DNA of 64,000 nt from Phyllosticta citribraziliensis (GCF_038025025.1 NW_027117346.1:1-64000), one strand, 5' to 3'. Numbered from the stretch's first letter, positions 2,481 through 37,275 are shown. Made by a program: numbers and translations. Notes: generated by a model not told the origin, from the letters alone.

Positions 2481-5162
2481 TCAGCCATTCTTTCGGTTGG
2501 CGTAAATCTTTGCGACTTCTTGAGCACGCTCTTCTGCGAGCTGAATCTCATACTGTGAGCGCCAGATGGGATTTGGGTTCAGCGGGATCTCAGCCTTCGT
2601 CATCGGCTCATCATCGTCGTCGTCGTCAGTGTCCTCCTCTTCCTCAACCTGGGGGCCAGTCACAACGTCACCTTCACCCCTGTCAATGAGTGCCTCAATT
2701 ACGTTGGCGGTGTCGACGAACAAGATGGGCGCAGCTCCGTGGGTATTCCTGGTTGACGCCATCTTAGCGAGGAACAAGTTGCTCGTCCTCATGGTCGAAA
2801 AGAACACCATGCCCGCCACGTATGGGAGCTGAGCTGCTTTGTCTAGAAGATTAAAGCAGGTCATTGTTGACAAGACGTCGTGGGATTCTTCTTTGATGGA
2901 TTGAAGGACCTTCCAGCACTGGATATGCATGCGGAAGTAATTGAAGGTCATTTCGAACATTTCGCCTTGCAGTGCGTTGCACATCTTCTTCAAGAGTCCG
3001 GCAATTGGAAGTCGCTGCAAACTCTTGGTTTTTTTGAAGTCCTGTGCTTGACGGCGGGCTTGATTGCGGGTGGGGCGCGACAATCTCATTCCGAATGTGA
3101 CTTGCCACGGCTTGATACCTTCCTCCTCATTGTCATCGTGACTCCACATGATGGTCTTTTCCATGATGTTTCTGAGCTCGTCGGGAGTGAACTCATGCCG
3201 ATATGAGTTTCTGCAGAAGCGGTCTATGAAAATCAGGGCAAGTGGAGCTTGGTGTGGAAGTGGTTTAACTCCAGCTTTAGAGGACCGGAAATAACGACGT
3301 GAGTCCTTGGCAAGAGAAGCAGCGGAAACGCCGTGAGTAATGAAGAAACGTCGGCAGCACTGGTCTAGAGTCTCTGGCGCTTTCTCTCCAAAGAGTGTCT
3401 CGCCTTGCAGCTCGATGAAGGTCTCTAGATCTTTCCATGGCTTATCAAGCAGCTTCTCGAGGCGGACAGCGTGATAAAGGTGACAGACGGACGTAGTGGC
3501 GTTCCGCGAGCCGGCAAAATTGACGCCAAGTTCGTGGAAGTGTGCTTGAAGTTTGTACTTGAACAGGCCGCAGTAGACTGGGTGTCGGCGAAAGAAGTAG
3601 AACGTCTCCAACTCCGGCCATGTTGGATTTTTCTTCGCCATGCATTGGTAGACATCCGTTCTGGTGCTGGATTCAATCTCCCCCATGAGGATGTCCATGG
3701 TCTCGTCGGCCTTTGCAGACCAAGGCTTCAAGCCAATTTCCTTGTAGAACTCTATGGTCTCTTTCATTGTCGACTCAATCTCTTGGGCAGCCTCGCACAA
3801 CTCATTGTAAGGCCGGATGACGTCTTGTCGTAGAAGGTGGTGAACGTCGAGGAAAAGCTGGACCGCCAGGACATTCCAGAACCTAATCTTACCAGTTTTC
3901 AGCACAATTCTGAAGCCACGGATCAATTCGTCCTCAGGTGTCGCCTCGTCAGGGAATGCAGCTCTGACGTGGAGAGTGGCGAAAGAGAAAAAGTCCTCGA
4001 TCAAAGCGGAATCTTCCATGTATTTTTGGCCGGGCGTTTTGGAGTGTCTACTGCTGGTGGGATCATAGTGACGATCGCGCAAACCGGCTTGGAGCATCGG
4101 GATATGGTGAGGTCTGGACCTCGCGTCTTCCGCGAATTGTTTGAGGAAAAAGAATGCGTTTAACATGACCTCCTCTTCCATATTGTAGAACGGCGGATTT
4201 TTGTTGTATTTTGACTCCACGGGTTCACGAATGTCCACGCCGTAAACGTAGTGATGACCCATAGCAAGTGCTTCCAAATGGTGTGCGACACCGCCGTGTT
4301 TCTCCATCGACGCAGGCATGTCGTTTTCCAAAGCACGCATGAAGTCTATCGCTGTGTTCGTCGCCAATGAAATCGCGATGATGTCGTAATAGCCATATTT
4401 GTAACCGACCCATAGGTTGTTCACGACTTGACGGATTACAAGCATGTCGTCCAGCAGCAAGGAAAGTAATGTGGCCCTCTCGTAGATATCATCGAGCTGT
4501 TCGGCCTCAAAGTCTGGCAGTGGTCGTTCGGGAAAAACAACATCGGGTGCGTTGAGGAATTCCTGCGAAGGCTCTTCAACATTCAGAGCTTCAAAGCTGT
4601 TGAAAATCCTATCGACTGGACGGTCTGCAGTTTTACGCTCCTCAGTCGTCGACTCGGGTGGCAGAATCGGGGCCAGAACTTCCTGAACGCGTTCCAAGAT
4701 GCCCACGAAGAAAGAGTGGTTCTCCTTTGAATGCTCTGAAGCAGCCTGCGCGGCAGCAACTGTGCCATGTTTCTTACGGGTGCTGATGGCGCGATCCAGT
4801 GTCTTGGCAAAGTATGATGGGACTTTGACACGCGGGTTTGTTTTGGCTGCGATGAAATCGGCAAGAGAGATGAAGTCTTTGATGGCGATGACATACGCGG
4901 GCCTTCGGCTTGCACCATTTGCCGCTGCACCTGCGGCGCTTGCTGCCTGCTTGGCTTCCTTTCGTGCCTTTCCTTTGAGACGTCCCGTGGTCTGAGTGCC
5001 CGATTTCTGAGCGTTGGCCGTGTTTCGGTGGAGAAGCAAATCTTCAGGATAGCCGCAGCTTCGAGCAGTGGTGGCGAGCCATGACGCGACGGTGTTCGTG
5101 TCTTCCTTGTACTGCTGATAGCTCGAAGTGAGGAAATTGGAGAGCGCCGGCGGGACCTGCAT
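2481..5162 (-). CDS. Large fungal hypothetical protein with N-terminal DUF6604-like domain (~890 aa)
   Basis: Long intronless ORF. The N-terminus SYQQYKEDTNTVASWLATTARSCGYP...GRLKGKARKEAK...F..LA.FI...AI..RK...H.FF..IL matches my recollection of the DUF6604 pattern. First ATG at 5162; probable 5'UTR intron at about 5249-5185. Confidence 0.8.
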   Translation of the reverse strand: MQVPPALSNFLTSSYQQYKEDTNTVASWLATTARSCGYPEDLLLHRNTANAQKSGTQTTGRLKGKARKEAKQAASAAGAAANGASRRPAYVIAIKDFISLADFIAAKTNPRVKVPSYFAKTLDRAISTRKKHGTVAAAQAASEHSKENHSFFVGILERVQEVLAPILPPESTTEERKTADRPVDRIFNSFEALNVEEPSQEFLNAPDVVFPERPLPDFEAEQLDDIYERATLLSLLLDDMLVIRQVVNNLWVGYKYGYYDIIAISLATNTAIDFMRALENDMPASMEKHGGVAHHLEALAMGHHYVYGVDIREPVESKYNKNPPFYNMEEEVMLNAFFFLKQFAEDARSRPHHIPMLQAGLRDRHYDPTSSRHSKTPGQKYMEDSALIEDFFSFATLHVRAAFPDEATPEDELIRGFRIVLKTGKIRFWNVLAVQLFLDVHHLLRQDVIRPYNELCEAAQEIESTMKETIEFYKEIGLKPWSAKADETMDILMGEIESSTRTDVYQCMAKKNPTWPELETFYFFRRHPVYCGLFKYKLQAHFHELGVNFAGSRNATTSVCHLYHAVRLEKLLDKPWKDLETFIELQGETLFGEKAPETLDQCCRRFFITHGVSAASLAKDSRRYFRSSKAGVKPLPHQAPLALIFIDRFCRNSYRHEFTPDELRNIMEKTIMWSHDDNEEEGIKPWQVTFGMRLSRPTRNQARRQAQDFKKTKSLQRLPIAGLLKKMCNALQGEMFEMTFNYFRMHIQCWKVLQSIKEESHDVLSTMTCFNLLDKAAQLPYVAGMVFFSTMRTSNLFLAKMASTRNTHGAAPILFVDTANVIEALIDRGEGDVVTGPQVEEEEDTDDDDDDEPMTKAEIPLNPNPIWRSQYEIQLAEERAQEVAKIYANRKNG

Positions 5163-7196
5163 GATGGCCAAGCTCTTCAAGCTTGCAGACTTTTGCGTCA
5201 GCGAAGATCATGAGCAAGGAAACTGAAGAGTGAGGAACGCCTGGCTTACCTGTTTTCGAATGCTTGAGCCAAAGGTCCAGCTTGCGCGCCGACCGCAGTG
5301 ACGCGGTGCCAAGATCACGCGCAACCAAGATGTTTAGAGTTGAAGCGAGATTTGGTGTTGTGAAGGTGCTGGCGGTGAGGGAGGAGGAAAGCGATCAGGA
5401 AAAGCCGAGAAACGCAGTTTGCGTGTCGACTGAAGTGAGCTGACTACCGTGGCTCGACCGCGATGGCTTGAGGGGCGGGTGACTTGATCGTAGTGACTCG
5501 AACGTGACTACAGCCACTTGACTGCAACGTCTTGACGTCAATGATCTGAGAGGAGCGATTCGAGAAAACCGATCAACCTTACCGCGGCAAAAGAAGCTTC
5601 TTCAGGATTGAGCTGTGGTCGAGTGTTGAGGAAAGGTTGGTCGGCAGCGCAAGTGACTTGACGGCAACAGCCTGGCGCCAATGATCCAAGGATAAAGCGC
5701 AGGCGAGCGCAGGTGGAGGAGACGGAGCAAACACACGGTGAGAGAAAGCGCCTTGCGATGCGAAACGCAATGCGGTGTGGCTTTGAGGAGAGGTCGGTTG
5801 GCGACGAAGCAAACAACCCAAGTCGAGAGCCGTGAGCGGTCGTCCGCGTCACGGCAGCAGCCAATTCACGAACAGCTTCACACACACAACATGTGAACTT
5901 CAAGCTTCCCAAGCGCTTTGACAAATATTCACCATGGATTTGATGACGCACACTACGACGTCCGAATCACTGCAAACGCGTCAGCTACAAGGACCAAAAG
6001 CGCGGGAAGCAGCTCAAACAAACCAGTAAACAACCTCAAAATTAACACTGCCGTTCAGGATCACACCAGCCAGCCATGCCACCTGGCGACAGCGCCACGA
6101 CAGAGCTCTCCAGCCACAAATTTTGCACTGTACAAAGGACATCAGCAGCGCAACGGACCAGCAATGTCAACCGGAACACGCTCGGCCTCTTCGTTCTCTC
6201 TTTATGCCTGATTCGCCCCGGCACTCGGCAGACCTCGTCACCGATGCGATCCTCAAGACCAACAAGTAGAAACAAGAAGTAGATAAATACCAACCCATCG
6301 ACCGAGCCTCTCCACAAGCCCCTCCCCTCCCACGTCTTCACCTTTCATCCACCCACCTACCTAGGTATACACAACCTCCGCGAGCAAGACGACTAAACAC
6401 GAGAAAATACATTCAACAAAAGAAGCCAGACTAAAAGTACAGGGGTGACAGTATTGGGTTATTTGCGTGGGTAAACAACAGCAACATCAACAGACATGAA
6501 GAAGAGAGACGGAGACGAGACGGACAAGACAGGTCGGTGAAGTGAGCTGCCGTGAAAGAAGACTACAGGGACGCTGCGGGAGTGAACCAGTAAGTGGCCG
6601 AAGAGGAACCTCCATGGTCGAATCGCCGTGCGTCGTGTCCTTCTACGACTATCGCTTCATGTATTCACCCGCCACGGCCACGGCCCCGTCCATCTTTTCG
6701 TACACTCGTACATCCGTCTCTTCGCGCGCTCGGGCGCGGCGGGGCGCGTGGGTGGAAAGAAGATTGCATAGCATCGTAGCGTCAATGTCGTTGAAAAAAG
6801 AGGCAAGAGAGAAAAAAGCAACGCACCCCCCGAATGAGCCCACCCGCCCAACCAGTCCTTTTTCTTTTGAGCAACAAAACATCTGTACAGCCGCCTCAGC
6901 CGCGCAAGAGAGCTTTTGCGTGTCTCTCTCAGCGCGACCAAACAGGAGGAGGAGGAGGAAAAACGAAGCTGGCCAGTCCCAACCATTCCAAAAAGAATAG
7001 AAGAAAGAACAAAAACGCCTGGTATCATGCTCTCTTCTCCGTGTGGTGTGCGACCGACATAAGAGTGTGTTTTTTGGTGGTTCAAAAGAGATTGGTTGAC
7101 ACATTATTCGTCAAGGCGGGAGGAGAAGGGGGGAAGGGGAGGAACGAATCCCATCAAGAGACGCTGAAATGGCTAGCGACGATTCGGAAAGCCGAT

Positions 7197-16284: not shown

Positions 16285-16535
16285 CTTGGGCTTGGAGGAG
16301 ATGGATATGATGATGGGTGGTGGCTGTTTGGGGATGTGAAGATGGAAGATGGGCGACGCGTCGAGGATGGATCCGCGGCGCGTCGGGCCTCGACGAATGA
16401 CGTGGGCTTATCTCCGGCGGCGCGTGGCTCCCCTCTTTGGCAAGCGCCCGTCCCGCGTAGACTTTCGTCTTGCCAACTGCTTCTCCAGGTCATTCAATCC
16501 GTCCTCTCGATCACTGGCACTTTATCTCTCTCAGA

Positions 16536-17072
16536 ATGTCGTCCGGATCCATTGCCCCGTCGTCCTCATTCGACCACAAGGCTTACATGCGTTTGGCCCT
16601 CGCCGAAGCTCTCAAGTCTCCTCCCAAGCCCACCAACTTCTGTGTTGGCGCTTTGCTCGTAGACGAAAGCAATGGACACATCTTGGCTACAGGTTACACG
16701 CTTGAGCTCGAAGGCAACACTCACGCCGAACAATGCGCTTTGCGAAAATACGCAACCGCCAGCAACGTCACCGAAGAACGCATCGGCGAGGTACTTCCCG
16801 AACACACCGTCATCTACACTACAATGGAGCCATGCAACTTCAGATTGAGCGGAAACCAGCCTTGCGCCGACCGTATTCTCCAGACACGGTCGAATGGCAA
16901 GGGAGGCATCAAGAAGGTGTACTTGGGGGTCAAGGAGCCGGAAAAGTTTGTGGGCGAAAACGAAGGACGGGCAAAGCTTGAGGCCAATGGCATCCAATGT
17001 GTGCATGTGCCTGGCCTTGAGCAGGAAATTCTGGCGGTTGCGACGGCTGGTCATGAAAAGAATTCCGCTTGA
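16536..17072 (+). CDS. Zn-dependent cytidine-deaminase-fold protein, Rib2-like (riboflavin pathway pyrimidine deaminase domain)
   Basis: TNFCVGALLV, TGYTLELEGNTHAEQCAL (HxE) and YTTMEPCNFRLSGNQPC (PC..C) motifs. Confidence 0.85.
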   Translation: MSSGSIAPSSSFDHKAYMRLALAEALKSPPKPTNFCVGALLVDESNGHILATGYTLELEGNTHAEQCALRKYATASNVTEERIGEVLPEHTVIYTTMEPCNFRLSGNQPCADRILQTRSNGKGGIKKVYLGVKEPEKFVGENEGRAKLEANGIQCVHVPGLEQEILAVATAGHEKNSA

Positions 17073-28579: not shown

Positions 28580-29576
28580 GTTGGACGGTGGACGGTCGGC
28601 TTCGGCGTGAGGCGCGTGGGCGCGTACCGTACCTTAGGCAGGGCTGGAAACGGCAGAAACCCTTTGATTGGCTGATAAGGCGGTGAGATGTTGAGTCCAG
28701 TGATTCGTCAACTCCCCGTTCTCCACCCAAACCTCAACTCTCAAGGTACGGTCTACTTAGGCCATCAAGTCATCTGCCAAGCGCACTACGGTCGATGCTG
28801 CCTGCCGAGTCTCATCAGGAAGCTTCTTCAACTCCGGAGTGCTGTGATGTCCGCTTCCATGCCATGGACTCATCTGGAGCGCTTTGTCGGAAACAGAAGA
28901 ACGGCGCCGATGAATCTCGTCGCGTCGTTGACTTTGGGCATCGTAGGATCAATCTGATTCTCCCCACGCTTGCCTCCTCTACTCCAGGGTCACACTCTAT
29001 GTACTTTTGCGGTGATTGCGGGTCATCCGGCATCGAGCCGCCGCCTCCAACCGCGACGCGACAAGCCGTCTTCTCGAATTTTCCTGAAAGGACGCGTTCT
29101 GGGAAGACATTGGTGAGTGGAATGACCATTAGCTGCATTTCTGACGAGTTGAACTTGTCAACTTTGATGCCACTCCCTCGAAATTGGGAATCCGCTCTGT
29201 CACCATGGAGTGGCTTCGATAGCATCTCCTACTTCACGCCTGATGTGTGATGGATGCACTGCAGACGAAAGAACTCAAATCGTTTTCTGTGATACGAGTC
29301 GGTCGCATGGAGGTATACCCAGATGACATGAAAAAAAACTTTTGGCAGAGATGGTGGGAGACGGGTGGAAGGAAGTCGCGCGTGGCGGTGGGCAGGCAGC
29401 TGCCTGCTGCTGGCAGCATCGACACCTCTTCTTACTTTCAACCTCCCCTTCCCAACGTCAAGAGTCACCACCACACCGACCGATGAGAGCCGTGAGTTGA
29501 ATGAACCGTCCATTGCTTCCTTTGGTCGCTGACCCTCACAGTGATCCTCACGTCGCCTCTCCGACTCTACCGCACA

Positions 29577-30337
29577 ATGACGGCACCGGCCAAGGACCGC
29601 CGCCTCCAGCTGCCTCCAAACCTGGGAAAGTTGGACTACGACAAAATCATCCGCGAATGTTTTGACTGCGGACGTCTCTACTTCGACTATGGTGAAATTC
29701 TCTTTCAAAAACCCATGCTTTTCCATAACTTGGCGGTGGTCATCACCGATGGAGCATGCCTGCGCAATGGACAGAGTGCTTCCCGTGCTGGAATTGGCAT
29801 TGTAGCAGGCTCAGACCCCTCTCAGCAATTTTCGATTCCGTGGCACCGCATCGATTGCATTCCTGCGGGTCTTGAGAGGACCAGCCAGCGCGCAGAGATC
29901 TTTGCGGCAATGGAGGGCTTGCGCAAAGCCGTGGATGTCCATGCGCACCTTTCCTGGGCCACGTTGGAATGGTTACGTCCCAGCAAGCTTATTCTTGCGA
30001 CAGACTCCGAATATGTCGTCAACGGCTTGACAGAGTGGTTTCCGAACTGGAAGGTATGCAGGTTGCCTGGCTGTATGATTACCCTTACTAAACTCTCCCA
30101 AAACAGAAACATGGCAACAAGACCTCCAGAGGCGTTCGCTCAGTCAACTTTGACCTATTTGAACAACTTGAAGCGACAGTCATTGAACTTGAGAAGAATC
30201 ACCGCATGGAAATCTTCTTCTTGAACGTCCCCCACGAAGCAAAAGCTCGCGCAGACAGGCTTGCCGGGGATGCCGCCCGATTGGATGACGCGACTGTCGA
30301 AGCCAACACCGTCCGCCTTGCTCAGTTTCACATTTGA
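29577..30337 (+). CDS. RNase HI-like protein, paralog 2 (exons 29577-30053, 30107-30337)
   Basis: ITDGACLRNG, RTSQRAEI, LATDSEYVVNGLTEWFPNWK|KHGNKTSRG...FFLNVPHEAKARADRLA. All four D-E-D-D carboxylates are present. Confidence 0.9.
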
Positions 30338-31271
30338 CCGCAAAACTCGGACGGCCACGCAGACGCGGATACTACACCATGCGTTCCAAATTAGAGGAAA
30401 GAAATGGAGCAATACAGGGCATTCATAGCAGCGACTACATTCTATCTCACTCCGCACCTCCCATCGACTGTTGTGGACGTCTGCGAAGCCGAGGGGGCGC
30501 AGGAATATGGCCTGGAGTCGCTCAGGGCCTAGGACGAAGCGATTCTCCAAGGCATAGATATAATGAGGCACCGGCTCGTAGCGTCAATGCTGCTCTCATA
30601 CGATCATTCTTGCTATGCGCAAGCACTGGGATGGAGAGGCTGTTGAGACCAAAGGAAACGAACAAATCAGCCAAAGCGAGTTCTTCGCAAGAACACCACT
30701 TCAAGGACGACCACCGCAGCAATGATTACGACTAGAATCAAAGTGACGAGGGATCGCGTATCGAGGTTCATACGAAGAAGACTTTGCTGCTGATGTTTTG
30801 GAGGCTGGCCGATTTTCTTCCAGTCGATGAAGCTCTTCGGACGCAGTATTTCTCTGCTGACTGGCTTCTGGCTTCTCATAATAACTCAATTGTCCATGGG
30901 ACGGCAATGGCGATTGACCATCCGCGAGGTACGGGAGTTCGTTACAAAGCAAAACAATAATTAAAGGAGGAGAGCAACTCTACTTGCTTCGGTACAAAAT
31001 AGATTATGGGAAAGATCAACTACAGAGAGGGACACAGATGCGCAGGGCGTGGACAAAAGTATTGTATGCAGTCAGGACATAATCTCTTCAGCCCCGCACA
31101 CCTGCACCTTTTACAGGCTCACATGATGAAAGCGAATTCGCGAGGTCGCCCAATATGCCATGTGTGGTAATCTACATCTCCCATTGGCCAGCAGAAAAGA
31201 CGGTCGTCCTTCATTCCGAACATCTCAACAAGCTCCAGAACCGTAGTAACAGGACACTCTCACTCTAGTCC

Positions 31272-31426
31272 AATCAGGTCACGTCATTGAAAAGCCTCAA
31301 CACCAAGCGACATCGCATTGGGTAAGGTACAGCTTCTCCTGTCAAAATCAGGTCACGCCATTGAAAAGACTCTACACCAAGCAAAGTCGCATTTGGCAAA
31401 GTGCAGCTTCCTCTGTCAGAATCAGG
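31272..31426 (+). repeat. Diverged 74-bp tandem duplication (two units plus the start of a third) upstream of RNase H paralog 3
   Basis: AATCAGG recurs at 31272, 31346 and 31420. The units share aatcaggtcacg.cattgaaaag.ctc.acaccaagc...tcgcatt.gg.aa.gt.cagctt. Confidence 0.9.
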
Positions 31427-31580
31427 AACCCCTTGCGAGGAAAGCAGTCGCTATTTAATTTTGGCGTGAACCCCACATGTGCTCCACGTCCCTTTCTGCT
31501 CCTCTCCGCTTTCTACGCTCACTCTCACTCTTACTTTTCCCCTCCAGGATCGATCGATCCACCAAAAACTTAACGTGGAC

Positions 31581-32343
31581 ATGGAGCTAGAGCCGCCCAG
31601 AGGTCGCCGCCTTCGGAGCTCCACACCGTTTAGTGCGGAGTACATACGGACTGACCTGGACTCCGGCCACTTCTTCGTCAAAATCTCTGGTCGTGAGGAC
31701 TGGGAGTACACGTTTGTATATCCCGTGATCTTCACCAATGGATCATGCCTCGCCAACGGCAGGAAAAACCCGCGTGTTGGCATCGGTATTGCAGCGGGCA
31801 CGCGCCCATATTCATATCAACAGGTCTCTGAGCCGCTCAGCAACATATCGCACATTCCCTACAAACGGAAGAGCCAGCGAGCAAAGCTCTTCGGGGCCAT
31901 CGAGGGTGTCTCGAGAGCCTTGGATCTGGTCGGCGGATGGCGTGATTCATTTACCGTTGGGGCCAGTGTGATCATTGCCACGGATTCGATGTATGTCGTC
32001 GATGGCATAACGGAATTGCTGCCCAAATGGAAGGTATAGTGCAATTGCCAAATATTTTATTCGTCCACTGCAAGAACTGACCAGACCTTTTCAACAGGCC
32101 AGGGGCTGGATGACTTCAAAAGGCCGTCGGCCAAAAAATCTCGACTTGTTCCAGGAACTCGAAAAGCGCGTCATCGACTGTGAAAAGAAACACGGCATAG
32201 ACGTCCTTTTCTTGTGGGTTCCCCACGACACAAACAGGCTTGCGTGCAGGCTTTCCAACTCTGCTGCCAAAAGGGATGCCCCTGGACACTTTGCCGGAGG
32301 TCGTTTTCGGGAGGACAAAGCGAAGGCCTTCTATGTTGGATAA
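31581..32343 (+). CDS. RNase HI-like protein, paralog 3, predicted catalytically inactive (exons 31581-32033, 32098-32343)
   Basis: FTNGSCLANG (D>N), SQRAKL (E>K), IATDSMY (D kept) and WVPHDTNRLACRLS (D>C). The ORF and intron are intact. Confidence 0.85.
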
Positions 32344-33052
32344 TCCGGTCTACCAAAGGGTGCAGTCAAGGAGACAATTCATTGAGGCCACTGCAGACGA
32401 AATTTAAAGCCTACGAAGTGCCTTTTTGCACTCCAGGCGATGTCCTCCTCGAAGACTTCCTGTACAGCTTTGCGGAAAAGAGTCTGCGTGGTATATACTC
32501 CATGGAGCAGCTGACTACTTTTTTGTGGGGGTTTCACACGTTGTAATTTGCTACATTGCAGCGGAGGAGAAACTTGTGGTCATTTTCAAACGAGGCATTC
32601 TTGACATGCCACATGGAGACCTCCGAAACCAATCAGAAGGTCCCCTTTGCCAAACAACAAATGATCAAGAACATTGTCAAAAAACGATGAGAACATTGGA
32701 ATACCTATTGCCGATTTCTCCTTGCTATGATCAGCTTGACCCACGACGATGAACAGGTACCTTGGCCGGCTTTGACATTTCCAACGCGGCATGGGGATGT
32801 ACGCAGAAAGAGAAGGCCCTCCGATTGTGGAGGTTGCGGTCCGTGTAGATCAACGGGAAGCAGCAGTAGAGCCGGCAACGCGAGTGCGACGAAGAAGTCA
32901 CAACACAAACACCTTCCGCGGTTTGGCGAGCGCCCTTATTTATCATCCTCCTCCTCTTCCTCCCTTCTGCTCGACACCTGTCCACACCACCGGTCACACT
33001 CTGACCCTTCATCTGAGCCCTCTTTTCTTCCACTCCCTTCACCGGAACCACC

Positions 33053-33856
33053 ATGTCGTGGAGGGCCATGTCGCGCGTACCGCTACCGCTGCCACCAGGC
33101 GCACCGCTGCCAGCAGGCTATTCAATCGCCAATCACATGGTCTGGCTCAATGGATACTGTCCATCACCCAGCTTGATTCAAGAGTGCATCTATTGCGGCC
33201 GATCCTTCCTGCAGTCTCCCCACGAGAATGACTTCTCCCACAAGTTGCCGCTCATCTTCACCGACGGTGCCTGCCTCAACAATGGATATGACGGCGCCCG
33301 AGCCGGATATGGTGTCGTAATCAGCAATGACGCCCAAGGCCGAAAGAACTTTGCATTCAGTGGCGACCAGGAGAGAACAAACCAAAAAGCAGAGCTGGCT
33401 GGCGTCAAGAAGGGATTGGAGCTGGCATTCCAGGCCGCTGGACAGCAGGGTCGTGCACACAGTTGCCCGACTCCTTCATACAAGAACTTCGTCATCGCGA
33501 CCGACTCGGAATATGCTGTCAAGGGAATCACTGAGTGGTTGCCGATGTGGAAGGTCAGTGACGGCTCACCCCTTGATTCCTAGGCCCGAGTTGCAGGCAA
33601 AGAGTTGGCTCGTTGACCCGATTTAAAACAGACCAACGGCTTCAGAGCTTCCAACGGTAGACGTCCAATCAATGAAGCAGAGTTCCGGGAAATCGACTAC
33701 ATCATGGAGCGTCACGAAGCAATGGGTCACAATGTAGCCCTATGGCATATTCCCCGCTCATTCAACGCCGACGCGGACCAGCTCGCCGGACAAGGTGCCA
33801 ACAGAGATCAAGGACCACGAAACCGCAATCATGGAGTCTGGCCTGCTTATGGATAG
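33053..33856 (+). CDS. RNase HI-like protein, paralog 4 (exons 33053-33553, 33632-33856)
   Basis: FTDGACLNNG, RTNQKAEL, IATDSEYAVKGITEWLPMWK|TNGFRASNGRRPINE...LWHIPRSFNADADQLA. All four carboxylates are present. Confidence 0.9.
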
Positions 33857-35404
33857 ATCATTCCATGCCATCCTGGCGAAACTCGCCTATGGCCATTGTC
33901 GGCGAAATACAGAATGACCGCCACCAATACCATGGTCTTCTCGACAGTCTGCTATCATAATCTTACCGCATATTGCAATGCGAAAACACCGAGAGCAAGT
34001 TACGGCATACCAGAAAGTATCTCTTTCCAGAATCGTCAAGGGATTCGGGTTGCGGAGGGGTTTTGATTGCAGTCCCCTGAAAATTTTCGAGGGCGGTTCT
34101 GTCCGGGAGGTAAATGTACCGGAGGCATCGAACACTGGCAGAATGCATTTTCAACTTCTAGAGACAACAGAATACCATAGTAGAATTTCAAATGTTGAGC
34201 AACTCTTAGTGGTATCGTGTCGATGCGCTGCGCTGCCCCTTCGCTCAACTCTTCCATGCCTTGTTTGGGCACAATGGAAACGTCAGGACCTGGCAGTTCC
34301 GCCAACCGGCAATCAAGATCCAATCACTGTGTACACAGCTTTGCGAGCTCCCTGTTTGTGCTTGTGCCAAGCTGCCAGGCGTGTAAGCTTGCCCTTTGGA
34401 GAGGACGAGTAGTGTAGGGAACAGGATTGCAGTCACTTCGAGCAATTCCTCTGGTAAGATGCAAGATCTTCGTATAATTGACGGTCGTATGACCGATGCT
34501 CGAATGTGAGGCGAGCGGCGCGAAGGAGAGAGAAGGTGGCGGGAGGGAAATGTGATGTTCCTGTTTCCTGAGCACCGCACTCGAACGCGGGCGAAAATAC
34601 GAACCGGCGACGGTCACTCAGTTTGATCGGGACACTTTTTGCGGCTTTGTGGAAGGAGAAGGGTGTTTCACGGCGATGATGAGAATTTGCGGCCACTCCA
34701 ACTTGGCCGAGGCGGCAGACATATGCGTCGCCGTCGCACTGTTGCGGAAGATCGTCGAAGTGTTTCGATGTTGGGATGTTGGCCGTCGACGAGTGACCAC
34801 ATACCCACGCGAACCGCAAGAGAAAGACTCCTGAAGTGACAGGGCCCGCCTAAGACCACCTGCAGGGCGAAAGGGGGTCGAAGGCAGCATGCGACTACCA
34901 TGTCTCCAAAGTACGATGTTATATTCAGGCAAAGTTTGCTTCCAAAGTAAGAACCAAACAGCTGCATGGGGTCTTATGGTCTAGTGGTGCCCACCGGGGT
35001 TTTAGGGTCGCTTCGTACAGCTTTGAATTCGAGTAAGGTTACTCTGGTCCTGAGTGAACGTCGGGGATGCGGAGGAAGATAATACAGTACGCGAGTTCGA
35101 ATCTTGTGGTTCATCTTTTTTTCCTTTCTTTGCTGTTGTTCACTTCAGTTTACGCGCGCTTGACCTGTCGACGCTGTTGGTCCACGAAGCTCACCTTCTC
35201 TGATCAGTCGTCCTTCAGCTTCTTGATTGGCCGCCGCCGCTTTCCAGAGGTTTCCACAATCAGCTGCTCGCTGAACGCGTTCACTCACTTTGCCGCTTAG
35301 GTTGCTCCCACTGACTTTATCCATGCAGCTCTTTTCTTAAATACCACCTAACCCGCCCCGAAAACTCCAACACCGCTCACATTGCCTCTGCGGCAACCGA
35401 CAAC

Positions 35405-36160
35405 ATGCCACCCCGAAACCGCCCTCGTCCCCGTCCTCCAAGGGCACACAAAATGATTCTTCGCAGAACCGAGCGTGGCATCTTTGGCAAGTTGCCCATG
35501 GAACTTATGCTTGAAGTCTTGGGACACCTGCAGTACGATGCTGCGATTTTCCTCGCGGCGACAAATCATTATTACAGACGACTGGTCGATCCCTTGACTG
35601 TTGTTTCAGAAGAACGGAAGTTAGAGTTTCTCGCACGAGCAGAGTATTTCCAGCAGCACATGCGCATTCCTTATGGCTTTGCCGCTTGCTTCTGGTGCTA
35701 CCGGGTCAAGAAAGTGCGGCATTACTTCGAACAGATCAACCAACCTTCCGATTACCACAATGTTCCGTTCAGCTGCAGTGGACCGTGGCAGATCTGTTCT
35801 GATTGCCAACAGGTGCCGCAAGTCTTGTCTCACCCGAAGGCCTTCGCGAAAGTCGTTCAAGTGGGATCCGAGACTACATTTTTGAAGTGGAATTGTGAGA
35901 CCTGCGAGGGTAGTGACAGCCAGAATCAGGAACTCACTTGCGCTATAGTCCATGGAGGTTGCGCTCGCTGTGGGCACTGTATCATCCAGCACGACCATCC
36001 TTTGGCTACCAAGTGCCCTACGTGCGAGGAAGATATCGTTTCTAGCGAAACGCAATGGTCATGGGCCTGTCGATTTTCGTGGATCATGAAACAAAAGTTC
36101 TGCACGATTTCTCGGCAATCTCGAGCAGAATTCGTGCGGCGGATGGGCCGTAATGAATAG
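35405..36160 (+). CDS. F-box protein with Cys-rich (multiple CxxC) C-terminus, paralog A
   Basis: FGKLPMELMLEVLGHLQYDAAIFLAATNHYYRRLV is F-box-like. Followed by CFWC, CSDC, CETC, HGGCARCGHC and CPTC. Confidence 0.85.
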   Translation: MPPRNRPRPRPPRAHKMILRRTERGIFGKLPMELMLEVLGHLQYDAAIFLAATNHYYRRLVDPLTVVSEERKLEFLARAEYFQQHMRIPYGFAACFWCYRVKKVRHYFEQINQPSDYHNVPFSCSGPWQICSDCQQVPQVLSHPKAFAKVVQVGSETTFLKWNCETCEGSDSQNQELTCAIVHGGCARCGHCIIQHDHPLATKCPTCEEDIVSSETQWSWACRFSWIMKQKFCTISRQSRAEFVRRMGRNE

Positions 36161-36504
36161 CTCGTTGGCTTCTCAAAGAATATCAGCTCACACGAATTAC
36201 CGAGAATTGCGATTTCAGTCGTGTCTGCGGTGCTAGAAGAAACTAGCGAAAGGATCGTGGCGCCGTGAACCACGTAGCTTTTCTTCTCTGATCAACTGTT
36301 GTTCAGGCTCCTGAGTGGCCGCCGCCTTCCAGACGTTTCTACAATCACCAGTCACCAATCTTGCTCAGTCACTTTGCTGTTTGGTTTGCTCTGCTCGCAC
36401 TGAGGCAGAAGACCTAGCCTGCCTTCCTTAAATACCACCCAACCCACCCATCTCCCGGCGAAAAGTACGGCGCCGTTCAAGACACCTCTGCGATGACCGA
36501 CTTC

Positions 36505-37275
36505 ATGCCACCCCGAAAACCTCCGATGCCGTCCCCTCTTGCTCATTTTTTGAAACTCACCAGGACTATCCATCCTAGGGTGCCAACTGAGCGCGGTTTC
36601 TTCGGCAAACTACCCATGGAAATGATGCTCGCAATCTTTGAGCACTTGGAGTACGGCTCCGCGATTTTCCTTGCTGCGACGAACCACTACTTCAGGAGCC
36701 TGGTCGATCCCATAGCGGTCGTATCAGAAGAGCGTAAAGCGAAGTTCGTGTACTATTCAGAGGTGTTCAAGAGGCGCGAATTCGGCTATGCTTGCTTTGG
36801 CTGCTACCGACTCAGGCCAGAGCAGTGCTTCATGCCCTTCTTTACTCCCAAGCAACTCAAGAGCAATGCCAGCGACCGTGAGTGGCTGCCATGGCAATTC
36901 TGCGCGGACTGTGCAAAGGTGAACCCGATAACCATTCCCCATTCTCCCACGCGCGTGGCGAACAGTTCCAAGTTCCTTGAATCGATCGACGATGGATCCG
37001 CCGCATCGAGCGGAGCTGAGGCATCCGCAACGGGCGAAGAGTCAGACTTTGCAGTTTGGGACTGCGACAGCTGCTATAAAGAAGAAAATATCAACATGTA
37101 CGCGGGTGGCTATTATGTCTGGATTCATCACGGGGGCTGCCCAAAATGTAACCACTGTGTTCTTTGGGCTAGCGATGTGACAGGCGAGTTTCCGATGGCA
37201 GACAGCGACCGCTCTGACGACTGCCCTTCGTGCAAATGTCGTGCCCTTCCTTTCAGAAATCTAGGCATCAGATGA
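36505..37275 (+). CDS. F-box protein with Cys-rich C-terminus, paralog B (in-frame upstream ATG at 36493 also possible)
   Basis: FGKLPMEMMLAIFEHLEYGSAIFLAATNHYFRSLV, then CFGC, CADC, CDSC, HGGCPKCNHC and CPSC. Colinear with paralog A. Confidence 0.85.
   Translation: MPPRKPPMPSPLAHFLKLTRTIHPRVPTERGFFGKLPMEMMLAIFEHLEYGSAIFLAATNHYFRSLVDPIAVVSEERKAKFVYYSEVFKRREFGYACFGCYRLRPEQCFMPFFTPKQLKSNASDREWLPWQFCADCAKVNPITIPHSPTRVANSSKFLESIDDGSAASSGAEASATGEESDFAVWDCDSCYKEENINMYAGGYYVWIHHGGCPKCNHCVLWASDVTGEFPMADSDRSDDCPSCKCRALPFRNLGIR

Follow-up and report, generated by a model that had tools for sequence, protein, structure and literature searches.

The window analysed here is a 64,000 nucleotide (nt) stretch of the Phyllosticta citribraziliensis genome (GCF_038025025.1 NW_027117346.1:1-64000), and its subject is an array of five genes on the plus strand at positions 29577–37275, three encoding RNase H-like proteins (R1, R2 and R3) followed by two encoding F-box-like paralogues (F1 and F2). 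With a probability of roughly 0.6, the array is a lineage-specific cluster of old tandem duplicates drawn from two unrelated, widespread fungal families, with no demonstrated two-part system. Under this explanation R1 and R3 would be stand-alone type-1 RNase H enzymes, from a family without a hybrid-binding domain that occurs in Ascomycota and Basidiomycota, and would use the usual two-metal mechanism to cleave the RNA strand in RNA:DNA hybrids. R2, predicted to be intact and confidently folded, may bind hybrids without cutting them or may be drifting towards loss, and a fourth copy elsewhere in the window, R4, would be a truncated copy beside a block resembling the products of repeat-induced point mutation (RIP). 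F1 and F2 would belong to a family, mostly ascomycete where taxa are recorded, that combines an F-box with CxxC zinc ribbons after it, and would be putative substrate receptors of Skp1–cullin–F-box (SCF) ubiquitin ligases. The adjacency of the five genes would then reflect local duplication within each family, with R1 and R2 as sisters, R3 grouping with R4, and F1 and F2 copied together with their upstream DNA.

An earlier note on this DNA, made from the sequence, had described five co-oriented genes of two families with an intron common to the RNase H genes directly after W-x-x-x-W-K, and this layout was recovered at the positions first noted. All five genes are full open frames. Each RNase H gene of the array has one phase-0 intron, GT...CAG, placed directly after the W-x-x-x-W-K motif. 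Exon 1 of R1 (29577–30053) encodes an eroded CxxC motif and the first two thirds of the RNase H domain, including the catalytic D, E and D; a 53 nt intron after W-F-P-N-W-K (30054–30106) separates it from exon 2 (30107–30337), which contains the stop codon and the fourth catalytic Asp according to the sequence, the catalytic-column alignment and the profile scan. In exon 1 of R2 (31581–32033) the first catalytic D is replaced by N and the E by K, and the Cys motif is lost. The R2 intron is 64 nt long and follows L-L-P-K-W-K (32034–32097), and exon 2 (32098–32343) carries the stop codon and, from the sequence and the catalytic-column alignment, a C in place of the last catalytic D. R3 consists of exon 1 (33053–33553), with a CxxC motif and the catalytic D, E and D, a predicted intron of 78 nt after W-L-P-M-W-K (33554–33631; GT..CAG) and exon 2 (33632–33856), in which the stop codon and the fourth catalytic Asp are present by the same three lines of evidence as in R1. 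Since exon 1 is in each of the three genes a multiple of 3 in length and ends in W-x-x-x-W-K followed by GT...CAG, the common phase-0 intron position is real. The encoded RNase H proteins are 230–240 residues long and include an N-terminal extension of 50–70 residues. F1 (35405–36160) is a single-exon gene for a 251-residue F-box-like and zinc-ribbon protein, identified from the open frame, the family profile and a structural model. Its paralogue F2 (36493–37275), identified from the open frame and the family profile, is likewise a single exon, encoding 260 residues; a second ATG at 36505 aligns with the start of F1.

The earlier count of three RNase H genes is correct for the array but not for the window, where tblastn of the exon products revealed four loci. 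R4 lies on the minus strand at 954–1568 (exon 1 1568–1104, intron 1103–1047, exon 2 1046–954), 28 kb from the array, and was also recovered by PF00075 and by the profile scan. Its intron occupies the same position as in R1–R3 and an early stop precedes the fourth catalytic Asp; R4 is a truncated copy. Scanning all 1561 six-frame open reading frames (ORFs) of at least 25 residues in the window with the family profiles returned the four RNase H loci, F1 and F2 only, so that R4 has no F-box gene beside it. A tblastn match at E 0.1 upstream of R1, considered as a third F-box relic, was rejected, as the profile scan found nothing there.

The locus analysis also corrects public gene models. The spliced product of R2 is identical to an annotated P. 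citribraziliensis protein (P0018), and R3 matches another annotated protein of this species at 99 %. The public model of R3, P0001, is mis-spliced, with ...MWK and the first residues of exon 2 missing, and P0008 is a chimera in which the F1 N-terminus is joined to the body of F2. R4 is annotated as a 158-residue protein (P0011). The R1 product is absent from the 120 RNase H family matches listed.

Comparison of the RNase H and F-box family profiles by hhalign gave a probability of 0.9 %, that is, no relation, and an RNase H domain was present in none of 30 longer F-box relatives. The earlier note had supposed a link between the families and an undescribed system; neither supposition gained support, as the profiles are unrelated and both families are widespread in fungi and already named RNase H-like or F-box in public annotation. 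For the RNase H family, a profile built from the four window first exons and the four first matches retrieved 1429 proteins at E≤1e-5 among 7999 scored candidates. The 120 listed matches are fungal wherever a source is named, come from Ascomycota and Basidiomycota (Sordariomycetes, Dothideomycetes, Eurotiomycetes, lichen fungi and Agaricomycetes), and are mostly named ‘ribonuclease H-like domain-containing protein’. For the F-box family, a word-based search returned only F1 itself and the chimeric model P0008, and an exhaustive search with the F1+F2 profile returned 186 representative proteins with E≤1e-3, including 42 with E≤1e-10. The nearest Atlas clusters of the F genes are named ‘F-box domain-containing protein’ and are mostly from Ascomycota (score 0.97).

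Two kinds of N-terminus occur in the RNase H family. In type A, found in Phyllosticta, Marasmius, Exophiala, lichen fungi and polypores, the module CxxC(G)xFF..CC.H...CHH immediately precedes the catalytic domain; no Pfam family matches this module, and its Cys/His pattern suggests a small zinc-binding unit. The module (CxxC..CC..CHH) is present in most relatives. The window genes are of type A with an eroded motif: R1, R3 and R4 keep the CxxC and one His, and R2 keeps none of it. Type B, mostly from Sordariomycetes, has a GRxFPTKF...RYxHRND stretch. Type B proteins often also contain a far-upstream Cys-rich segment, GRxVCGPHGLxxCGKCCxDYSF, followed by an acidic linker and matching no Pfam family. 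The NCBI CDD includes a model for uncharacterised fungal RNase H, RNase_H_Dikarya_like, and a literature search by that name returned no paper. Search listings of the literature gave no functional study of the RNase H family, of the F-box family or of their linkage. In the main text of PMC9073689 the words ‘ribonuclease’, ‘RNase’ and ‘F-box’ each occur 0 times. Querying the Atlas with the first 72 residues of P0020 yielded no usable match.

The duplicates are old. Among the RNase H copies, pairwise identity is 36 % for R1/R2, 35 % for R1/R3 and 30 % for R2/R3 (tblastn E 1e-14 to 1e-22), and R4 is 51 % identical to R3 exon 1. Between paralogues, the proportion of differing synonymous sites (pS) is saturated at 0.65–0.76 and the proportion of differing nonsynonymous sites (pN) is 0.37–0.46, below pS in all four pairs compared, which indicates old duplicates under net constraint. 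The ratio of nonsynonymous to synonymous substitution rates (dN/dS) was rejected as a test for positive selection because of this saturation, which leaves the finding that pN is lower than pS as the one usable result.

A maximum-likelihood tree of 36 rows was built from the 4 window proteins and 32 hand-picked proteins of the 123 from the RNase H search, namely 20 of type A, 11 of type B as outgroup, and P0005. P0001, P0011 and P0018 (the models of R3, R4 and R2), the odd model P0003 and the remaining type B rows were omitted. R1 and R2 are sisters (99/95). R3 and R4 form a clade with one protein each of P. citrichinensis (spelled as in the source) and P. capitalensis (100/99). All 10 Phyllosticta rows fall together at 89/77, which is not strong. 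These 10 ascomycete rows form a clade with the 4 rows of the basidiomycete Marasmius (99/98), placed among other Agaricomycete rows; this grouping reflects either hidden paralogy or transfer between phyla.

On the first exons, PF00075 (RNase_H) scores 46.5 bits for R1, 31.6 for R2, 54.5 for R3 and 49.5 for R4, against a cut-off of 25.8, and the full-length R2 protein (P0018) scores 48.2 bits. At the catalytic columns R1 and R3 read D-E-D-D, R2 reads N-K-D-C, and R4 reads D-E-D before it is truncated. D-E-D is present in all 16 other family rows compared and the fourth D in 15, the remaining row, P0023, ending before that column. As R1 and R3 keep D-E-D-D, they are probably active hybrid-cleaving enzymes. 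The closest solved proteins by sequence are the catalytic domain of human RNase H1 (1e-13), E. coli RNase HI (about 1e-10) and the RNase H of human immunodeficiency virus (HIV; 1e-5). The alignment to human RNase H1 continues through the W-x-x-x-W-K-x-x-G-W/F stretch (W..WK..GW.TS.G), which we take to be the substrate-gripping basic protrusion of cellular type-1 RNase H, without counterpart in retroviral RNase H.

The RNase H fold was modelled on R2. The AlphaFold model has a mean predicted local distance difference test (pLDDT) score of 85.1 and a predicted template modelling (pTM) score of 0.83, and of 147 Foldseek matches with E≤1e-3 the catalytic domain of human RNase H1 ranks first (E 8e-13, TM score 0.84 by target, 28 % identity). 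The inactive member proposed in the earlier note is R2: on its model and catalytic columns it is a folded, intact pseudo-enzyme that has lost three of the four catalytic residues. The absence of a recognisable hybrid-binding domain, also proposed there, held in Pfam searches of six exon pieces at E≤1 and of 7 full-length family proteins, R2 among them, at E≤0.1, although a weak or divergent domain could escape such searches; the corresponding Pfam model is PF01693 (Cauli_VI). The different N-terminal extension was borne out as well, in the form of the eroded Cys/His motif.

F1 and F2 share an LPxE(L/M) N-terminus and paired CxxC motifs, and are 36–44 % identical (tblastn E 1e-38 at 36 %). Their duplication unit takes in about 230 nt of upstream DNA, with 71–88 % identity between 35182–35619 and 36270–36737. 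The conserved part of their family comprises a GxFGKLPxEL..LDY.SAIFLAATN..F N-terminal motif, a helical stretch and CxxC...CxxC; its four cysteines are invariant in 35 aligned members and are all kept in F1 and F2. An F-box or F-box-like row falls at the same N-terminal place in 10 of 12 close relatives, exceeding a curated cut-off in 3, and the Pfam F-box cut-off is exceeded in 24 of 30 longer relatives, many of which have two modules. The F1 model has a pLDDT of 77.3 and gave no Foldseek match against the PDB at E≤1e-3. In structural alignment, 14 of the first 25 rows (VIA) pair its residues 20–67 with F-box chains of Skp1 complexes, at Z 2.7–4.3 and a root-mean-square deviation of 2.0–3.1 over 39–47 residues; a Z score this low may reflect a common helical arrangement. 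Residues 173–216 align to MCM-type zinc ribbons (Z 3.1–3.5). The best reading of F1 and F2, from family sequences and the model, is F-box plus zinc ribbons at the level of the family, at which the earlier description of F-box/zinc-finger genes is borne out, and they may by extension be SCF substrate receptors. The searches with profile hidden Markov models and structures that had been suggested for the spliced proteins pointed to cellular RNase H for R1–R3, with an RNase H1-like fold for R2, but left the F-box of F1 and F2 below threshold.

Transcript evidence consists of contigs from two public runs of unrecorded type, X1 and X2, of two studies. The contigs are free of mismatches to the region, and their GT..AG skips fit complementary DNA (cDNA). 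The R1 intron (30054–30106) is skipped by contigs of both runs and the R2 intron (32034–32097) by one X1 contig; the spliced product of R2 equals P0018. Spliced cDNA would yield contigs without introns, so R1 and R2 are apparently transcribed and spliced in the predicted way. No listed contig bridges the R3 intron, one X1 contig starting at 33630; this intron is supported by its splice signals and by the way in which the joined product aligns with the family across the junction. Cover of the F genes is thin, with one 257 nt contig on F1 and F2 covered in part, and no conclusion is drawn from the gaps. For the suggested check of dN/dS and expression, intron-less contigs were found for R1 and R2, and the substitution data gave pN below a saturated pS.

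An X1 contig also skips 50 bases upstream of R1 (29492–29541, plus strand, GT..AG), consistent with an intron in the 5′ untranslated region, the joined frame containing no upstream in-frame ATG. The same contig reaches about 1.2 kb upstream of R1 (to about 28200), over the end of a methyltransferase-like gene. A longer R1 protein with upstream exons was considered and rejected, as the joined frame has a stop at 29329–29331 and no ATG before 29577. A contig that spans two genes does not show a single transcript, and both this upstream stretch and a contig running from R2 into R3 are therefore read as overlapping or read-through transcription and not as one protein. Upstream of R2, two tandem 74 nt direct repeats (31272–31419, plus strand) are 82 % identical and have a CACGTCA-like core. 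They occur nowhere else in the window (chance expectation 0) and end 12 nt before the first base (31432) of the R2-covering X1 contig; they may be a promoter element.

Several observations weigh against a plain cluster of old duplicates. The five genes are co-oriented and tightly packed. One contig (31432–33498) spans R2 with its intron removed, the spacer and part of R3 exon 1, as might be expected if the RNase H genes were co-regulated; the transcription units of R2 and R3 may overlap. The end branches of R1 (1.05), R2 (1.29) and R3 (0.89) are long against a median of 0.36, so that these copies are more changed than their relatives, and either conflict-type evolution or relaxed constraint could account for such branches. 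No R2 orthologue from another species is among the 120 listed matches, and the 90 % cluster of R2 has one member sequence, which hints that the array is young in distribution although the duplicates are old. A dead but intact paralogue with an intron-less contig is unusual for a plain housekeeping duplicate. Finally, the F-box call on F1 and F2 rests on family-level and low-Z structural evidence with no threshold-passing match: on F2, F-box-like scores 16.0 (cut-off 24.3) and F-box 13.8 (cut-off 20.5), and F1 gives no row.

Some of these points would equally suit decay, in which most or all of the extra copies (R2, R4, and perhaps R1, R3, F1 and F2) are functionless and on their way out. The truncation of R4, the loss of three of four catalytic residues and the Cys motif in R2, the erosion of the Cys/His module in R1, R3 and R4 relative to the family, the long end branches and the thin contig cover of F1 and F2 all point this way. 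However, the open frames of R1, R2, R3, F1 and F2 are all complete, R1 and R2 are represented by contigs without the intron, the model of R2 is a confident and complete RNase H fold, every pair has pN lower than pS, and F1 and F2 keep every invariant cysteine of their family. General decay is an unlikely account of the array.

The packing of the array, the dead yet intact R2 with its intron-less contig, the long branches of R1–R3 and the lack of an R2 orthologue from other species among the listed matches could also be accommodated by a coupled conflict or defence module. The RNase H proteins would then act on retroelement or viral hybrids or be toxic to self, R2 would serve as a decoy or regulator, and F1 and F2 would control protein levels as SCF receptors. 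Such coupling is improbable, given that the family profiles are unrelated and the 30 longer F-box relatives contain no fusions, that R4, 28 kb off, has no F-box neighbour, and that the ranges of the families differ among the matches (RNase H in Ascomycota and Basidiomycota, F-box clusters mostly in Ascomycota). The earlier note had regarded fast divergence as typical of conflict loci; the saturated pS, with pN below it in every pair, does not support this and gives no sign of recent amplification or overall positive selection. A predicted complex of R2 (P0018) with F1 residues 20–251 scored 0.00 against a mark of 0.34, which speaks neither for nor against binding.

Just as doubtful is the idea that the RNase H genes derive from retroelements, were carried in by a mobile element or came horizontally from Agaricomycetes, which would make the array a mobile or foreign region. 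The Phyllosticta–Marasmius clade among Agaricomycete rows would agree with transfer, as would the position of R4 against an AT-rich, RIP-like block with mobility, and RVT_3 gives weak rows below its cut-off (e.g. E 0.007 for R3 exon 1). However, the tree samples 32 hand-picked rows of the top-120 list, and its unexpected grouping may stem from hidden paralogy. Cellular RNase H1 and RNase HI give the best matches in sequence and fold, retroviral matches being far weaker, and the stretch after W-x-x-x-WK, presumably the basic protrusion, aligns with human RNase H1. Spliceosomal introns lie at one common position in all four copies. Among 42 window ORFs scanned (30 long ORFs and 12 in or around the array), none matched a family of reverse transcriptases, integrases or transposases, and the GC content of the array, 0.51–0.55, is like that of its surroundings. 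The introns, the intron-less contigs and the cellular nature of the best solved relatives uphold the earlier view that these are host genes and not retroelement fragments. A further proposal, that the fungal RNase H proteins with a Cys/His module in place of a hybrid-binding domain are conflict nucleases against retroelements or mycoviruses, diversified in Phyllosticta into the active R1 and R3 and a dead, hybrid-binding R2 as decoy or regulator, with F1 and F2 as dedicated SCF receptors restraining them, is the least probable of all.

The flanks of the array are ordinary fungal genes, the methyltransferase-like gene upstream and an alpha/beta hydrolase downstream; farther out are Stu2/XMAP215-like, WD40 and DnaJ genes, transcription factors and a peroxidase. 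The ORFs between the array genes match no family. R4 is truncated after ...NELTRKEG, and its 3′ side abuts an AT-rich block (1–900) with a GC content of about 25 % and a TpA/ApT ratio of 1.7–1.9, which looks like RIP-mutated DNA. A large DUF6604 gene (2481–5207, minus strand; E 2e-65) adjoins R4. Additionally, an ORF at 16461–17072 (plus strand) strongly matches PF18785, ‘Invertebrate-AID/APOBEC-deaminase’ (E 4e-57), and also matches the general cytidine/dCMP deaminase family; it may be an ordinary tRNA or cytosine deaminase.

If the array is a cluster of old duplicates, it neatly illustrates how tandem duplicates arise and decay within one lineage in two fungal families, with little weight beyond annotation. 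Should the two families prove to be linked across fungi, the array would become a candidate for a new eukaryotic conflict module of nuclease plus ubiquitin ligase. The large fungal family of stand-alone RNase H proteins, in which a conserved Cys/His module replaces the hybrid-binding domain, may deserve a specialist look. Likewise, R2, as a naturally dead, intact and well-folded paralogue, could be a native binder of RNA:DNA hybrids.

Among known systems, the RNase H of retroelements (retroviral, long terminal repeat (LTR) and non-LTR pol) resembles the window proteins in superfamily fold, in the catalytic carboxylates and through the weak RVT_3 rows. It differs in that the window genes have the W..WK..GW stretch, spliceosomal introns and their own start codons, with no adjacent reverse transcriptase or integrase found, and similarity is far weaker (1e-5 for HIV RNase H versus 1e-13 for human RNase H1). 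F1 and F2 are comparable to F-box proteins such as Skp2, Cdc4/Fbw7 and FBXL in the N-terminal LPxE(L/M)...L motif and in a predicted helical arrangement that can be aligned, at low Z, with the F-box chains in Skp1 complexes, and their relatives pass the Pfam F-box cut-offs and fall in Atlas clusters named F-box. F1 and F2 themselves score below those cut-offs, and their substrate side would be a short Cys-rich segment of paired CxxC motifs that belongs to no Pfam family, unlike WD40, LRR or Kelch repeats.

The catalytic domain of human RNase H1 (PDB 2QK9, 6VRD and 8SWC) is the best match in both sequence and fold, with D-E-D-D conserved in R1 and R3 and the W..WK..GW.T..G....N.D.F stretch aligned. 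In contrast to the human enzyme, the window proteins have a Cys/His-rich extension in place of the N-terminal hybrid-binding domain, the loop preceding the last helix has the sequence W-H-(V/I)-P-R-E-x-N where the aligned human segment is H-V-P-G-H-S, and there are several paralogues per genome, one of them dead. E. coli RNase HI, the rnhA product, belongs to the second-best group of matches and is similarly a single-domain type-1 enzyme with a core of similar size; the fungal genes differ from it in their introns, in the 50–70 residue N-terminal extension and in insertions between the second and third catalytic residues. R1–R4 fall within the fungal ‘ribonuclease H-like domain-containing protein’ family itself, in its CxxC..CC..CHH subtype, from which the window copies are set apart by an eroded or lost Cys/His module, by their tandem array and by a dead member.

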